DNA of 22,223 bases from an uncultured virus (IMG/VR IMGVR_UViG_3300036770_004547). Lineage: Duplodnaviria > Heunggongvirae > Uroviricota > Caudoviricetes. The notes beneath the pieces are model-generated. The model worked only from the letters and a program-made list of their open reading frames with translations, did not search any database and was not told the DNA's origin. Where the stretch lies: the IMG/VR virus record IMGVR_UViG_3300036770_004547; one strand, written 5' to 3'. Of the stretch, positions 14,773 through 20,663 are shown piece by piece; position 1 is the first letter of the stretch, and the number at the start of each line of letters is the position of its first letter. The position numbers were made by a program, and so were the translations under genes.

Positions 14773-15042
14773 TTAGACACCCATAGCCGTGTACTGAGCC
14801 ATGCTAAAAGGCTCACTAGGCATCTTTGCGGTTGAACTGAATAAGCGTTCGGGATTAGATTGGAGATTCAAAAAAGTCTGAAACAATTCTCCAACATCTG
14901 ATTTGGGTTGGAATTTAAATTGTTTTTTCCTAATGTAATCTGAGACTTGCTGCGGGTACTGACGATATTCATCCAAGCCCGCAAATCTGGCATCACTTGG
15001 AAGATAAGAATCGGAATCAACAACTTCGGAAAACCTAGCCAT
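14773..15042 (-). CDS. Hypothetical protein (89 aa)
   Basis: TAATG overlap with the upstream gene; fills the operon gap. Confidence 0.7.
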   Translation of the reverse strand: MARFSEVVDSDSYLPSDARFAGLDEYRQYPQQVSDYIRKKQFKFQPKSDVGELFQTFLNLQSNPERLFSSTAKMPSEPFSMAQYTAMGV

Positions 15043-15707
15043 TACACGAAATCCTCCTCGTCGCCAGCTCTTAGTCGATCTAAGAAATCTTGAAGATACA
15101 CATCTGCATTCATATTAACTTCAGGTAAAAAACTTTGTTGTCTTTGAAAATTTGGAATTACTCCCATGATAGTGCGAAGTAAATTGGCGCCAAGCCTATT
15201 GCCGTCTTGAACAGGTGTTGAGGCTACAGGAGCTGCAGGACTTTCAAGCGTTACAGGTAAATCACCAAGAACACGACGAGCATTTTCATATAAATCACCA
15301 CCTTTTTTAAACCTAGGAAGAGCGCTAGATACTGAAGTACCAAAAGAATCCTTGGCTTTTAATGATACGTTTGGATTACCACCAAGAACAGTTGCATAAG
15401 CGCGATCAATACCCATTTGACCGGGTTTAAAACCACGGTCTTCAAAGTATTTTAAAACAGCGGGCATCTGCCCGGCTCTTGTTTGAGGTCCAGAAATGCC
15501 ATAAAGCTTTTGTTCGTTTTGTCCGAACTGAATCAAGCCCTTATGTCGACCGCCCGCACCACCAACAATATTGGGATCCATGTTGGGGCCTGACTCCAAG
15601 GAAAGGAATCCGCCAAACTCATAAGGATCTAAACCTAATTTTTGCGCCCCACGGAAGATGGCCATCCGCTCTTCATGGGGGAGAGTACCAACGCGTGGAG
15701 TGGGCAT
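15042..15707 (-). CDS. Lytic transglycosylase-like (SLT/lysozyme-fold) protein
   Basis: LGLDP...LSLESG..DP...GLIQF motif with catalytic Glu-Ser, and a downstream AYATVLGGNP motif. Confidence 0.7.
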   Translation of the reverse strand: MPTPRVGTLPHEERMAIFRGAQKLGLDPYEFGGFLSLESGPNMDPNIVGGAGGRHKGLIQFGQNEQKLYGISGPQTRAGQMPAVLKYFEDRGFKPGQMGIDRAYATVLGGNPNVSLKAKDSFGTSVSSALPRFKKGGDLYENARRVLGDLPVTLESPAAPVASTPVQDGNRLGANLLRTIMGVIPNFQRQQSFLPEVNMNADVYLQDFLDRLRAGDEEDFV

Positions 15708-15720
15708 AATAACTGAATTT

Positions 15721-15837
15721 TTATTCTCCTACCCAATTTGAATTTGCCTTAAGACCAGGGACGAATACTGCTTGAAGAGCCACAACTAAACTCAGTTTGG
15801 CAGTGAGACGACGAAGGAAATTACGGCAAAGAATCAT
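15721..15837 (-). CDS. 38-aa signal-peptide-like small protein
   Basis: ATG 15837: MILCRNFLRRLTAKLSLVVALQAVFVPGLKANSNWVGE has a basic n-region, hydrophobic h-region, P-G-L-K-A c-region and short polar tail. Confidence 0.55.
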   Translation of the reverse strand: MILCRNFLRRLTAKLSLVVALQAVFVPGLKANSNWVGE

Positions 15838-15838
15838 T

Positions 15839-15945
15839 GGGTTACTGCAAGAACGCTGGTCTCCGTAGATCAAATGATCTGTTACCCAGCAGGTGGACTT
15901 ACCCACAGATGTGGCGCCAAGTAACCCTAGTTTACCAAAGGGTTA
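15839..15945 (-). other. Candidate structured RNA leader of the small ORF
   Basis: Closing stem GGGUUACU/AGUAACCC; inner stems GCUGG/CCAGC, AGAUC/GAUCU and GUGG/CCAC; competing hairpin UAACCCU/AGGGUUA; TAAACT hexamer at 15934-15929. Confidence 0.5.
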
Positions 15946-16851
15946 TTTTAAGCGTCCTTCAAACGCACGTTTAAGTAACGCAAGTTGCGTTTGAGTCAGA
16001 TTCTCAGAAGAAGGAACGTCAAATCCTTTCTTGAAGACGTTCTCGCCAATCATTGAAGGAGGAGTTTGCCCTGGTGCACTGACACCAAGCTGTTGTGCAT
16101 TCGCACCCATGCCAAAGGCATTCATGTTACCAGCTTGTGCTGAACCAGGGAATTGCACTCCCCCAGGCGCACCGACTTGTTCACTGGCCTGTTGATATAT
16201 GGTTTGCGTGACACCAGGGATGTCCTTGCCGAACACTTGGGATCCTGACATCGCTGCAGATGTCTGATAACCAACTTGTCCAGGCCTTACTTGTTTTGCG
16301 AGCGTGGGGTTAGTAGTTGCCCAAATCTGAAGACCAATCCGTTCTTTATCTTCCGGACTTGCTGCATTATATGCTTTAGTTAACTCGGCTACTTGATATT
16401 TTTTAACAAGAGGATCTTGTTCTGTAAGTTGAGCAATGCGAGAACGCTCTTGCATTTCAGCGCGTTCAATAGGAGTATCAATAGATGCAAACGTAGAGGC
16501 TTGTTGACCAGGGAAACCAGCACCTGGGCGAAATTGCTCTGCTGCTTGACCTGCTGCTAATTCTTCTCTTGCATAATCAGAAGTTAATCCAGGCATGCGA
16601 GGACGTTTTGCAGTATCCAAGTTGAATCGTCTGTTACCAGCTACTGCTACTGGATTAGAGCCGACATATGGCCGTTTTTGCCCAGGAGGTGCAAATTGAT
16701 TTTCAACTGCTGTGCCAAAATTTTGCAAAGCAGTAACAATATTATCTTTTGGATTTAAAATGCTTTGTACTCTTGGAACAATATCTGCTGCTGCGCCAAC
16801 TGCTCCTGCTAATCTTCCTAACAAAGCTGGTGCTGAAATATAACCAGGCAT
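15943..16851 (-). CDS. Hypothetical A/G/Q/P-rich protein, possibly an internal virion protein (302 aa)
   Basis: Long ORF in the structural block, starting 2 nt after the upstream stop. Confidence 0.75.
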   Translation of the reverse strand: MPGYISAPALLGRLAGAVGAAADIVPRVQSILNPKDNIVTALQNFGTAVENQFAPPGQKRPYVGSNPVAVAGNRRFNLDTAKRPRMPGLTSDYAREELAAGQAAEQFRPGAGFPGQQASTFASIDTPIERAEMQERSRIAQLTEQDPLVKKYQVAELTKAYNAASPEDKERIGLQIWATTNPTLAKQVRPGQVGYQTSAAMSGSQVFGKDIPGVTQTIYQQASEQVGAPGGVQFPGSAQAGNMNAFGMGANAQQLGVSAPGQTPPSMIGENVFKKGFDVPSSENLTQTQLALLKRAFEGRLK

Positions 16852-16853
16852 AA

Positions 16854-17315
16854 TTACCTCAAAGCCTCATGTAAATAAAGACGTGATCCAACACTGGTAT
16901 CAGCAGGGCCTGGAATTGCCTGAATAAATTCAGCACCAGACCTTTCGTAACGATAACGAGCTTGGAAAGGATCCTTGTAGTTAGGGACGTAAAGAATATG
17001 TGCTAGACGATTCGTTTCGTACAGATAAATTTCGTCCCAGACCTTTAATGCTTCTCTTGCATTACTGGAACGAATCGTACGATCAACGTCGCCAACAATA
17101 TTCTCAACGCGGGTGGAAGGCGTTAATGCAACTTCGGTTTTCTTTTCGGCCGTATCACAACGACCAATCTGAATAATGATCTTGTCGTAAAAGTAAGAGT
17201 CCGGAACAGTGTTAAGTGATTCCTCTAAGCGAGCGTAGTCACCAGCAGGAACCGACACCACATAGTAACCTAAGTGGTAACGAACTCTACTCTTATCAAA
17301 ATCACTGAGCTGCAC
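16854..17315 (-). CDS. Hypothetical protein, possible head completion/adaptor (153 aa)
   Basis: GTG start with TATAAT upstream; size and position downstream of the capsid genes; function inferred from position only. Confidence 0.7.
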   Translation of the reverse strand: MQLSDFDKSRVRYHLGYYVVSVPAGDYARLEESLNTVPDSYFYDKIIIQIGRCDTAEKKTEVALTPSTRVENIVGDVDRTIRSSNAREALKVWDEIYLYETNRLAHILYVPNYKDPFQARYRYERSGAEFIQAIPGPADTSVGSRLYLHEALR

Positions 17316-18110: not shown

Positions 18111-18138
18111 ACTAAAAACCCCTGGTTTCCCAGGGGTT
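18111..18138 (-). terminator. Rho-independent terminator after the HhH gene
   Basis: AACCCCTGG-GAAA-CCAGGGGTT stem with a GNRA loop, running into a U-tract (TTTTTAGTTTT) on the minus strand. Confidence 0.85.
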
Positions 18139-18153
18139 GTAAGGAGATGTAGT

Positions 18154-18585
18154 TTAGATGCGGATCAGATCAGCGGCAAAAACGGAGTCCCAATCAACTC
18201 GACGAATTTGACGCAACTGGTCGAGATTACTGAATCTTTCACCGGAAAGTGACAGTTGTAAATCTTTAATCTCTCGAGCAGTCTTCAATCCAATTCCCTT
18301 GATGTGATCTGCAATCATCTGTGCCGTAGCACCGTTGATATTGAGACGTGTATCAGGAGGAAAGTTGCGGGGTTCTTCTTTAGCTGCTTTATCTTTTACC
18401 TGAAGAGTTTTTACTTTTTTCGTTGCAGGCTCATCAGGAGAGAGTTCGTTTTTGTAAGCGGTATAAAGGCGACCGTCCTGATCTTCGACCATGAACCAAT
18501 CGCCGTTATCCCATTCGCTAATGATTCGAACTCTTGCTCCTGTTTTGCAATGACGATGAAGAATCTCTTCAGAGAGAACAGACAT
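18154..18585 (-). CDS. Helix-hairpin-helix (ComEA-like) DNA-binding protein with small N-terminal beta domain
   Basis: RLNINGATAQMIADHIKGIGLKTAREI...FSNLDQLRQI is an HhH_3 signature. Confidence 0.8.
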   Translation of the reverse strand: MSVLSEEILHRHCKTGARVRIISEWDNGDWFMVEDQDGRLYTAYKNELSPDEPATKKVKTLQVKDKAAKEEPRNFPPDTRLNINGATAQMIADHIKGIGLKTAREIKDLQLSLSGERFSNLDQLRQIRRVDWDSVFAADLIRI

Positions 18586-18616
18586 AGGACCAGAAAATGT
18601 ATCTGGTCCTAGTTTA
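18585..18616 (-). promoter_or_regulatory. TAAACT -10 element abutting a 10-bp hairpin that includes the A of the HhH start codon
   Basis: TAGGACCAGA (18585-18594) / TCTGGTCCTA (18602-18611) perfect inverted repeat; TAAACT on minus at 18616-18611. Confidence 0.7.
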
Positions 18617-18622
18617 GCCTAA

Positions 18623-19417
18623 TCAGCTAACAACGCGACCCAGGAGGTAGCCATCAATATCTTCGTAGCCAGGGGCTTCATCTGGTTGGATGTAGCACAC
18701 TTCAACAACGAAGTAGCCAGTGCGGCCAGCAGCTTTATCTGCAGAAGAGATGTACCAACCTGCATCAATACCGCTGGTAACGGTGGAAGCAGTACGCGAG
18801 AACACTTTATAAGTGGCAGCGCTGGTCAGTTCCTTGTAGACGTTAGTGGCGGTGACACCAGCGGCGCCGGTAGCAGTCAGGAAAGGATTGGTGCTATAAG
18901 CAGCGGATCCACCAGCGAAGAAGATTTCGCCTTCTTGGCTACCGGAAACAGTGCTGGCGAGGTTGGCCTGAGCAACACCTTCACCAACGGCTGCGCTAGA
19001 AGCAAGGCCAGTAGCAAACGAGATCACGCGACCAGTGGTAGCATACACACCGGAAGCAACGCGGCCATCGCCCCAGCCGGAAGCAACGGAGATGGTAGCG
19101 CGATAAACGTAAGCAGGAAGGGTGCTGGAGCCACTGATCACCATGCCGGTGATGTCAGTACGGGTGTCATCGTTCCGGTAAGGGGAAGGAACAATAACGT
19201 TGCCCGACGAAACGGCACCATCGCCAGAAGCAGTGGTGACGGGCACATAGCCACGCTGTTGGAAATAACGATAGCCAGGAGTTGCCAACACCGAAGTGGG
19301 GCCGCCTTTCGAACCATCATTAGCACCGCTGTCATCGGTATCAATGTTTTTGTACCAACCGTTCAGCGGCTCTGCCCAGTTACCAGGGTAGATTTTTTTA
19401 GACGAGAGATAGGTCAT
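18623..19417 (-). CDS. Putative capsid decoration/minor structural protein (264 aa)
   Basis: Immediately downstream of the capsid gene; GGAG SD; highly expressed codon bias; A/G/S/T-rich. Confidence 0.7.
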   Translation of the reverse strand: MTYLSSKKIYPGNWAEPLNGWYKNIDTDDSGANDGSKGGPTSVLATPGYRYFQQRGYVPVTTASGDGAVSSGNVIVPSPYRNDDTRTDITGMVISGSSTLPAYVYRATISVASGWGDGRVASGVYATTGRVISFATGLASSAAVGEGVAQANLASTVSGSQEGEIFFAGGSAAYSTNPFLTATGAAGVTATNVYKELTSAATYKVFSRTASTVTSGIDAGWYISSADKAAGRTGYFVVEVCYIQPDEAPGYEDIDGYLLGRVVS

Positions 19418-19453
19418 TTATTTCTCCGTATGGTTTACTTATGTTTTTACTTA

Positions 19454-20617
19454 TCAGACGCTACCGTCATCGGAGACGAAGCTGTAAGCAGTGGTGATGA
19501 AGTCTTTGTTCAGGACTTCGAAACCAGCATACAGTTGCCAGATGAGGATGATGAAACGGCTGAAGTCGTCGTTGTTGTTGATCAGCACCTGAGCATTCGG
19601 GCCACCGATACCAACGCCAACGGCTTGAGGACCGAAGAAGAAACCTTGAGCAACTTCTTGGGCGCTGTACGAAGCAACGTCGGTGAAAGAAGCTTGAACA
19701 GTTTTGGAGGGGAAGTTGGTCGACTCGAAGAACTTCACACCTTCAAACTGAACACCAGTCGGCATAACGGGTTCACCAGCCAGGAAGTAAGCCTGACCAG
19801 CTTGGGGACCCATGTAGAAGCTGGCGTTGTTAGGCATCATGGGGTTACCCATGTACATGCCTTGACCAGGGTTGCCGCTGTAACGAGCGATCTCACGGAA
19901 GTCAGGATCACGACGCAGGTGCATCATGAAGGTGGGATCGCAAATGCAACGATACAGACCATCGGTGAAGGTCGGCACGTTACGCTTACGCATATCCTTG
20001 ACGACGGTCAGCAAGTCGGTACGAACCGAGAACTGCTGGATGTCGGCAGTGTATTGAGCAGCGGTGTAAGCAATTTGACCAGAAGAGTTTTTGGTCTTAC
20101 CACCAGGGAAGTAGTAACCACCTTGGCTGGTAGAAGCAGCACCATTGGCTTCAGCTTTGGCAAGTTCGTCAATGAAGACGCGGTCACGCCAACGGCGATA
20201 GTCGTCAAGCAGGGTCAAGCTGCCGATCGACTGGTGGAACATATTCAGGTTGCCGGTGTCCAGAAGCAGACGCTGGGCGGTAACCAGAGTTTCGCGAGCA
20301 ATCTTGAAGGTCGAAGGCTGAGTCGGATCGCCCGGGTCAGCAGGACCGGTGTATTCCTTAAGCACCACCAGGACTTTCTCCTTGGTGATGTTACGGCTGT
20401 TAGCAGTACCAATAGTCTGGTCAGCAATGCGCTCACGGCTGTCCTTAGTACCAGGGGTACCCCAGAACTTATAGCGGTCGAGCTGAACGGTTTGACCAGG
20501 TTGACGAGTGAAGTCGTGAACAACAACAGGCTCTACGGCCATTTCGCAGATGTACGCCGGGTGGGGGCGATACAGTTCTGCACCCAAAATCTTGGGGAAA
20601 TCGGTATCAAGAAACAC
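19454..20617 (-). CDS. Major capsid protein (N4-gp56-like, HK97 fold; 387 aa)
   Basis: GTG start with GGAGG SD; PGQTVQLDRY, VLKEY, CICDP, GVQFEGVKFFESTN, FFGPQAVG and DDFSR...W..YAGFEVLN motifs; strong codon bias; TGA TAA double stop. Confidence 0.85.
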   Translation of the reverse strand: MFLDTDFPKILGAELYRPHPAYICEMAVEPVVVHDFTRQPGQTVQLDRYKFWGTPGTKDSRERIADQTIGTANSRNITKEKVLVVLKEYTGPADPGDPTQPSTFKIARETLVTAQRLLLDTGNLNMFHQSIGSLTLLDDYRRWRDRVFIDELAKAEANGAASTSQGGYYFPGGKTKNSSGQIAYTAAQYTADIQQFSVRTDLLTVVKDMRKRNVPTFTDGLYRCICDPTFMMHLRRDPDFREIARYSGNPGQGMYMGNPMMPNNASFYMGPQAGQAYFLAGEPVMPTGVQFEGVKFFESTNFPSKTVQASFTDVASYSAQEVAQGFFFGPQAVGVGIGGPNAQVLINNNDDFSRFIILIWQLYAGFEVLNKDFITTAYSFVSDDGSV

Positions 20618-20663
20618 TTTAGTTTATCCTCCAGTACGCAGGACTTTGTCGGGTGAAAGATTC

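Follow-up and report, generated by a model that had tools for sequence, protein, structure and literature searches.

A Covarying RNA Motif of S-EIV1-like Cyanophages Probably Heads a Variant of Programmed +1 Recoding

Results and Discussion

Genomic Setting of the Element

The window analyzed in this study, a stretch of 22,223 nucleotides from an uncultured virus (IMG/VR record IMGVR_UViG_3300036770_004547), is part of a phage genome, as a major head protein was found in it. On its minus strand, a virion-module gene for a protein of 302 amino acids (15943..16851), which has no Pfam or PHROG family, is followed by the RNA element, by an unannotated 38-codon ORF starting at 15837 (15721..15837) and by a gene for a 221-aa protein with its own ATG at 15707 (15042..15707). 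The stop codon of the 302-aa gene lies 21 nt before the predicted start of the RNA. As judged by sequence comparison, the element is an RNA motif of ~80 nt of the S-EIV1-like cyanophages, a family of viruses of freshwater cyanobacteria. The original prediction had correctly placed a structured RNA upstream of the small ORF, whereas the locking of this ORF's frame to the downstream lysin gene described below had escaped it.

The Synechococcus phage S-EIV1 was the sole annotated phage record matching positions 15000-16900 (83.5% over 224 nt). This match spans only the RNA and the small ORF and falls between two annotated genes; the whole cassette is present in this isolated phage, inside an unannotated gap. 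Homologs were gathered via the downstream protein (43 loci), via the coding pattern of the peptide and via the RNA pattern, and since all counts given in this study refer to related sequences, they do not represent independent events. In the first set, the ORF was found in 288 of 306 entries. A held-out metagenome set was picked by the peptide alone, using a pattern that ended at the Trp codon. The full RNA was present in 105 of its 120 loci, 14 were cut short, and the remaining one carried a variant that the covariance model scored with 80 bits, RNA and ORF occurring together in 106/106 untruncated loci. Strong matches of the covariance model were obtained for the genomes G002, G003 and S-EIV1, while the best match in G004, a genome of the overprinted clade discussed below, reached only an E-value of 0.18. 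Four of five records searched contained one strong RNA copy per genome, the fifth being an 8.8-kb fragment.

A search of 185,579 genomes with a strict pattern yielded no bacterial copy of the RNA; one of the six matches was real, and it resides on a phage-type contig in a metagenome bin. A complete cassette was seen on a 5.9-kb contig binned as Bacteroidota (L285:817-917), probably a mis-binned phage contig. No published description of the RNA, the ORF or the frameshift was found, with subscription papers, among them the S-EIV1 genome paper, lying outside the scope of this search. The tables of a study reporting 8,495 candidate RNAs from IMG/VR (PMC10690425) contained no match, its alignments being outside the comparison, and the RNA may be listed among these candidates. 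The accessible part of a further study (10.1101/325100) names S-EIV1 only as a relative.

Elsewhere in the window, a dCTP deaminase (PF22769; 4361-5989, plus strand) is split by ~350 amino acids beginning with CM and ending with GNC, which resembles an intein with a homing endonuclease. An open frame of 656 codons (18686-20656, plus strand), antisense to the major head protein and the next gene, is probably a shadow of codon bias.

Conserved RNA Fold and Covariation

The RNA fold was derived from an anchor-based alignment of 128 distinct rows with 110 distinct RNA cores. The parser used, which demanded an invariant CC and GG, covered 283 of 288 loci, and one more was left out as truncated. From 5′ to 3′, the RNA consists of a 5′ hairpin (P1 with UGG/CCA, P2 and an invariant UAAG), a CC linker, a core hairpin, a mini-hairpin and 9-10 nt leading to the AUG. 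For the 5′ domain, in which UAAG forms a loop strand (15894..15919, minus strand), independent double changes were counted for the P2 pairs (5, 7, 5, and 3) and the outer P1 pair (3). The CC linker (15892..15893) is present in 128/128 rows, as required, like the GG, by the parser. It could pair with the invariant GG of the P3/P4 loop to form a pseudoknot, a pairing that offers no covariation to judge by. The core hairpin (15855..15890) comprises P3 (5 bp), an isolated Y-R pair, an AYGG bulge and P4 (5 bp). P3 is paired in all 110 distinct cores and P4 in 104-110 of them, and independent double changes amount to 9 for the Y-R pair and to 9, 7, 1, and 5 for pairs of P4. Directly downstream, GU-NNNN-GC (15847..15854), located 9-10 nt before the AUG, probably forms a 2-bp mini-hairpin with a free 4-nt loop, its ends being GU..GC in 114 of 115 cases and GC..GC in one, with 12 different loop sequences.

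Among all pairs of the 201 alignment columns, which cover RNA and ORF, the six top corrected G-scores all belong to predicted base pairs. These pairs lie in P4, P2 and the Y-R pair and show 5-9 independent double changes each. The expected number of false pairs was 0-0.33 under a tree-based null, for which a purpose-built, R-scape-like simulation and not R-scape itself was used. RNAalifold applied to a MAFFT alignment missed P3, as two subtypes are offset by one column, and the P3 counts were therefore taken from the anchor-based alignment. When the sequence of the window was folded alone, P3 and P4 were near certain, P1 and P2 had low probability and the outer closing stem reached ~0.08; this single-sequence fold is not beyond chance (z -1.25; 23 of 200 shuffles were equally good). 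In three loci (L070, L073, L150), the 5′ domain is swapped for a plain hairpin right after a -10 box and the core hairpin is kept.

Searches against Rfam yielded no match at the gathering score in the window, and an E-value search of the window region together with eight homologous loci yielded chance matches only. That the original prediction could match the element to no known riboswitch class agrees with the Rfam result, and the inner stems are, in line with its suggestion of a new RNA, conserved and covarying. Neither a tRNA nor a tmRNA was found in the window or in positions 1-50000 of S-EIV1. Taken together, the comparison supports a new, conserved and covarying cis-located structure, which we regard as a well-supported candidate motif absent from Rfam.

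Outer Stem, Alternative Pairings, and Promoter-Like Box

The remaining parts of the predicted architecture were found in the window as described, namely an outer closing stem formed by GGGUUACU (15927-15920) and AGUAACCC (15846-15839), which ends 1 nt before the AUG at 15837, the inner pairings GCUGG/CCAGC and AGAUC/GAUCU, a GUGG lying between two CCAC and an upstream UAACCCU that takes in the stop codon at 15945-15943, all on the minus strand. The 3′ arm of the outer stem (15839..15846) falls into the unconserved spacer before the AUG, and the 5′ arm (15920..15927) is lineage-restricted. Among 110 homologs, the outer stem pairs in 38% of cells and the alternative between GUGG and the 3′ CCAC in 28%, in both cases no better than in shuffles, and the eight outer-stem pairs together show two independent double changes. 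Of 36 promoter-bearing variants, 7 have an outer helix of at least 5 bp (cross-pair rate 11%; P 0.017 by permutation, uncorrected for relatedness), as do 11 of the 126 remaining variants (cross-pair rate 14%). For the upstream alternative arm, -7 kcal/mol was attained in 4 of 35 cases (P 0.009, again uncorrected for relatedness). The outer stem and the alternative pairings were therefore rejected as family-wide features; they are restricted to a few promoter-bearing variants. No conserved expression platform or alternative pairing was found, and a simple scan detected no terminator-like site after the element. Hence, the part of the original prediction that concerned a new cis-located RNA structure is supported, whereas a switch between mutually exclusive pairings is not, since these pairings belong to the sub-lineage of the window and are not conserved in the family.

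Upstream of the RNA, TG-n-TAAACT (15929..15937, minus strand) is best read as an extended -10 promoter box. TAAACT stands six bases before the A opening the RNA motif, and the box was found at this fixed spacing in 35/35 type-B and 2/93 type-A rows of the alignment (37/128 overall). A transcript starting at the site predicted from it (15922) would begin inside the 5′ arm of the outer stem, so that most of this arm would be missing from the RNA. The effect of the internal promoter in the lineage of the window would thus be that the extra stem, which closes directly ahead of the AUG, loses its 5′ arm.

The predicted recurrence of TAAACTAGG in front of the HhH gene was confirmed; the window contains two exact sites of this sequence and three with at most one mismatch, compared with 4.4 expected. 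The HhH leader (18585-18616, minus strand) consists of a TAAACT box followed by a 10-bp hairpin closing over the start codon, and the same layout was observed in S-EIV1 (L044) and L033 with a compensatory change from G-C to A-U. Judged by this layout, the leader looks like promoter-plus-hairpin control of the T4 gene e type, and the shared design of box and hairpin explains the likeness between the element and the HhH leader. Between the HhH gene and a gene for a 243-aa protein, a terminator-like hairpin (18117-18138, minus strand) followed by a TAGAAT box was also noted.

The Small ORF and the Downstream Hydrolase

The 38-codon ORF encodes a basic N-region, an uncharged hydrophobic region, P-x-L-K/R-A and x-S-N-W-V. 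The distance from ATG to Trp is 34 codons in 288/288 cases, and invariant residues use several codons (four each for Pro27, Leu29 and Ala31). Since invariant residues vary synonymously and this length is fixed, the ORF is coding. Each of the 131 distinct peptides carries a net positive N-region and is free of charged residues at positions 15-26, and their best 12-residue hydropathy is 1.6-2.6. Sec signal peptides consist of a basic N-region and an uncharged hydrophobic stretch, followed by a region ending in Ala, and by its composition the small ORF product looks like such a signal peptide. Nine residues, including Gln22, Phe25, Pro27, Ala31 and SNWV, are invariant across 31 diverse peptides, which is more than export alone needs. 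No protein family was found for the peptide, and the ESM Atlas gave only unnamed clusters under 0.9. Its AUG has no nearby Shine-Dalgarno site, and the residues following Val in the zero frame number between 1 and 12. In two loci (L033, L042), which have the ORF and the phase but not the RNA, 15 nt separate the upstream stop from the start of the ORF.

The 221-aa protein is lytic-transglycosylase-like (profile match to PDB 9udh, E 2.6e-5), with its domain at residues 1-150, an invariant Glu38-Ser39 and a disordered C-terminal part. Foldseek likewise returned 9udh (E 5.3e-5), followed by goose-type lysozymes and MltE/MltF. Relatives at the same position match tail lysozyme (PF18013), SLT (PF01464), phrog_90, phrog_12490 or phrog_4928, so that the downstream gene encodes a cell-wall hydrolase of at least five families. 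A Pfam match was obtained for 13 of the 37 downstream proteins tested, and several have no family in Pfam or PHROG. A separate phage lysozyme gene (PF00959; 7381-8046, minus strand) represents a second, conventional lysin candidate in the window. Furthermore, a helix motif W-x-x-x-N-P-x-L-A is shared by the 302-aa protein (15946-16851, minus strand; around residues 175-190), by the product of the host gene in the overprinted clade and by some hydrolases, in which it is N-terminal; it may be a virion targeting signal.

The Hydrolase Is Locked to the +1 Frame of the Small ORF

In the first set, the distance from the Trp codon to the ATG of the hydrolase was 1 mod 3 in 97/97 distinct segments, and in the held-out set in 84/85. 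The exception is L396, where the first ATG belongs to a second overlapping ORF and no stop interrupts the +1 frame over 54 codons, reaching into the next gene. With L396 set apart, all 146 distinct junctions, 19-85 nt long, are in the +1 frame. They contain not a single stop in 1054 +1 codons, compared with 42 stops in 285 and 27 in 381 codons of the other frames after the small-ORF stop, and at least eleven linker lengths occur, which differ by multiples of three. When 40 dissimilar spacers were shuffled 20000 times, zero stops were never reached. As a control, the distance from the upstream stop to the ATG of the small ORF was distributed over the three phases as 37/37/29, and for spacers of S-EIV1 the phases were 9/9/10, with stops in 13 of 28 spacers (19 stops in 366 codons). 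Two neighboring junctions also hold one phase (17/17 and 6/6), although only at coupling distances of -4 to +2 nt. In the window, the linker has seven +1 codons (15708..15728) and is open into the start of the lysin; a four-base step at Val36 reads the small ORF into the hydrolase, which shows an open frame only.

The putative recoding site of the window is UCA AAU UGG GUA G (15729..15741, minus strand), with 15729 as the base to be skipped. Just after Val36, several loci (L380, L310, L360, L420, L393, L307) carry changes that are silent in the +1 frame, yet modify or eliminate the stop of the zero frame; the switch is thereby placed at codons 35-36. Val36 is encoded only by GUA or GUU and always precedes a purine, whereas for Val24 each of the four codons occurs. 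Behind the Trp codon, the next four bases read GUAG in 130, GUUA in 10 and GUAA in 6 of the 146 junctions, and in 136 of these a UAG or UAA stands in the +1 frame directly before the open stretch. Re-pairing from GUA/GUU to UAR/UUA fails; from UGG to GGG it gives two of three pairs and meets a stop in 136/146. At codon 37, GGA occurs 83 times and AGA 9 times among 102 cases.

Several other ways of joining the two frames were considered. Splicing and a recoded TAG were rejected, as no constant boundary bases exist, and matched-codon hopping was rejected since the first +1 codons vary among eight residues and there is no landing codon. An AGGAG at the site fits as a Shine-Dalgarno sequence only in the 19-nt class, with no start codon after it elsewhere, and a fixed 13-nt spacer was likewise discarded. 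No natural in-frame fusion was found among 1.84 billion representatives, where the profile gave three matches of 40, 52 and 79 aa; ten other candidates, a weak test, included no fused protein either. In no case is the putative signal peptide in frame with the catalytic domain; it is always +1. Neither the ORF nor the shift site covaries with the RNA. Overall, comparison of the homologs firmly supports the predicted RNA fold, the coding nature of the small ORF and a selection keeping the +1 frame open from the base after Val36 into the hydrolase, and it is very likely that the linker is translated as a continuation of the small ORF.

Overprinting in a Divergent Clade

In L018 and its relatives, the cassette is overlapped along its entire length by a different upstream gene, which is read in the third frame. 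This clade has a divergent small ORF with an ATG in 13/13 cases, and its peptide lacks Cys4, a residue that is invariant elsewhere. Four-fold sites of the host gene are the same in 237 and different in 17 cases over the small ORF, compared with 120 and 92 in the tail. The +1 frame is open for 47-54 codons in 13/13, counted on a partly different set of loci than the ATG. A synonymous T that would create a +1 stop was used at 0 of 61 sites vs. 65 of 178 elsewhere in the tail (P 2e-10), a gap not seen in the controls (73/181 upstream, 111/277 in the hydrolase). Inside the host gene, the 3′ half of the RNA has been kept at a distance of 11 nt upstream of the ATG, with 105 four-fold sites unchanged and 10 changed, and this remnant is not detected by the covariance model. 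The host gene ends -4 to +5 nt from the start of the hydrolase. In L427:1501-2142 and relatives (L018, L428-L448), ~270 nt are seemingly read in three frames, as host gene, small ORF and +1 linker. In L396 (140-304, minus strand), the host gene has kept its C-terminal tail, in the +2 frame, downstream of a normal RNA and small ORF, and this locus would, by this arrangement, be an intermediate form between overprinted and ordinary loci. Most economically, ORF and RNA would have originated by overprinting and become independent of the host gene later.

Proposed Function and Alternative Explanations

Based on these comparisons, it appears fairly likely that the RNA is the 5′ leader of a lysin cassette, in which it precedes a signal-peptide-like ORF, followed by a +1 recoding site and by a linker that leads to a peptidoglycan hydrolase. 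After translating ...S-N-W-V, some ribosomes would step one base forward and go on into the hydrolase, and the fused product would be a Sec-exportable lysin, while the hydrolase's own ATG would give a shorter, probably virion-associated form. The shift is probably promoted by the conserved C-terminal part of the peptide (Q, F, P, L/M, K/R, A, SNWV), acting within the ribosome tunnel. In the simplest case, the purine after GUA/GUU would be skipped without re-pairing, as in one interpretation of Ty3 (PMC5009743). Alternatively, tRNA-Trp might slip from UGG to GGG, followed by read-through of the +1 UAG, which would lead to a product of the same length. As no covariation links the RNA to the site and L033 and L042 do without the RNA, a role of the RNA in initiation is favored; most likely it sets initiation at the AUG of the small ORF, probably as a protein-binding operator. 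In its widest form, which we put forward only tentatively, the proposal is a +1 recoding on bacterial ribosomes for which a slippery codon is dispensable, the driving force being a conserved nascent peptide that also serves as signal peptide. This export module, interchangeable and derived by overprinting on a virion gene, would turn any of several virion-type peptidoglycan hydrolases into a secreted lysin, with the new structured RNA, possibly a ligand-sensing one, setting the timing.

A rather unlikely alternative, itself compatible with a recoding cassette, is that the RNA is a metabolite- or ion-sensing riboswitch timing lysis, in which P3/P4, CC-GG and the mini-hairpin form a pocket altering access to the AUG. 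The invariant unpaired UAAG, CC, GG and GU..GC beside covarying stems would suit an aptamer-like fold, as would the fixed spacing of 9-10 nt to the AUG and the H-type pseudoknot order that a CC-GG pairing would create, but there is no conserved alternative fold, the 5′ domain is replaceable (L070, L073, L150), the strict pattern found no bacterial copy among 185,579 genomes, and neither the downstream genes, which suggest no ligand, nor Rfam, which gave no match, point to a known type. Self-cleavage or another processing signal generating the 5′ end of the cassette mRNA where the internal promoter is absent might account for the invariant bulged bases and for the type-A copies (93/128), which begin few bases after the upstream stop and of which only two have a -10 box; as promoter-bearing copies keep the same invariant bases and no Rfam ribozyme matches, we judge it very improbable. 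That the element is an independent small RNA acting in trans, the other reading offered by the original prediction, is hardly credible: the promoter box found in 35/35 type-B rows would fit it, whereas 91 of 93 type-A rows, and thus most copies, have no box, the simple scan revealed no terminator-like site, and the RNA always lies at a fixed distance before the same ORF.

Other explanations concern the recoding itself. Without any fusion, the small ORF could encode a stand-alone membrane or secreted peptide that is translationally coupled to the hydrolase, the phase being inherited from an ancestral stop-start overlap. Such a peptide could be holin-like or a signaling peptide released after P-x-L-K-A, with a tail of 6-7 residues that recalls arbitrium peptides; the hydrolase always has its own start, an in-frame fusion was not found, neighboring junctions keep their phase too, and the host gene of the overprinted clade ends -4 to +5 nt from the hydrolase start. 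We nevertheless consider it unlikely, because it leaves unexplained the absence of stops in 1054 codons, the eleven or more lengths differing by multiples of three, the +1-silent changes abolishing the zero-frame stop and the avoidance of T, and because the length of the zero-frame tail is not constant (1-12 residues after Val). It is slightly less plausible still that the RNA takes part in recoding instead of controlling initiation, by pairing with the shift site, by mimicking a tRNA or by editing or splicing the message. The shift site does contain YUGGG, which copies the 5′ strand of P1 and might base-pair with the HCCAR strand; this pairing is possible in 88 of 128 rows, C never replaces U there in a way forced by covariation, and RNA and ORF co-occur in 106/106 untruncated held-out loci. 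Against this stand the lack of any double change at the shift-site pair and of significant covariation between RNA and ORF, the phase held by L033 without the RNA, the missing tRNA or tmRNA call together with a CCA-like end that is not invariant, and the lack of a constant splice-site base at the skipped position. The reading as a leader of a recoded lysin cassette accordingly remains the preferred one, and the new RNA motif probably heads a variant of programmed +1 recoding.

Comparison With Known Systems

The endolysin Lys44 of phage fOg44 is reportedly secreted by means of a Sec signal peptide encoded in a single in-frame ORF. The cassette resembles endolysins of this type in having a basic, hydrophobic leader ending in Ala before a muralytic domain, but here none of the cases seen has the leader in frame. 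The Downstream-peptide and glnA glutamine riboswitches are cyanobacterial structured RNAs located before a small ORF. Position and cyanobacterial context are shared with the element, which in contrast to them has no Rfam match even by E-value.

With respect to the outer stem, the closest parallel is the leader of the T4 lysozyme gene e, in which, according to PMC3014915, a stem hides the start of the lysis gene in read-through transcripts and the promoter lies in the 5′ strand of the stem. The outer stem of the window and the HhH leader would fit this layout of a promoter within a stem, as would the element of L001, if transcription begins at the predicted site. Differing from gene e as described there, the stem here is lineage-restricted, encloses a larger covarying RNA and would regulate the start of the small ORF.

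PepNL, a nascent peptide hindering release, which is resolved by read-through of the stop, provides a precedent for the route via a Trp slip (PMC11890864); it differs in showing no frameshift and an arrest at a zero-frame UGA. T4 gene 60 bypassing is also a phage recoding event that depends on the nascent peptide at a fixed distance from the P site, but it is distinguished by matching codons for take-off and landing, by a zero-frame stop following take-off and by a gap of 50 nt, features of which no counterpart was found here (PMC5009743). Skipping of a base after a codon whose tRNA cannot pair in the +1 frame is known from yeast Ty3 and from the GCG type of antizyme frameshifting, which are, however, eukaryotic, use other codons and involve no fusion to a signal peptide (PMC5009743). 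As with prfB and the Listeria phages, the downstream ORF is conserved in the +1 frame and open from the shift site.

The Listeria phages PSA, A118 and A500 use programmed +1 frameshifting at CCC_UGA and share with the cassette two products from one start region, a second ORF in the +1 frame and a structural-module context; they have a re-pairable CCC and a stop in the A site, whereas there is no re-pairable codon here and the position of the zero-frame stop varies (PMC5009743). The bacterial +1 frameshifts described so far depend on re-pairing of a tRNA at a suitable codon. If the proposed reading is true, a widespread phage site without such a codon would offer a new handle on the control of the reading frame by nascent peptides, the cassette would show a signal peptide and an RNA element arising by overprinting, and a lysis route would be at hand for an abundant lineage of cyanophages that includes the isolate S-EIV1.
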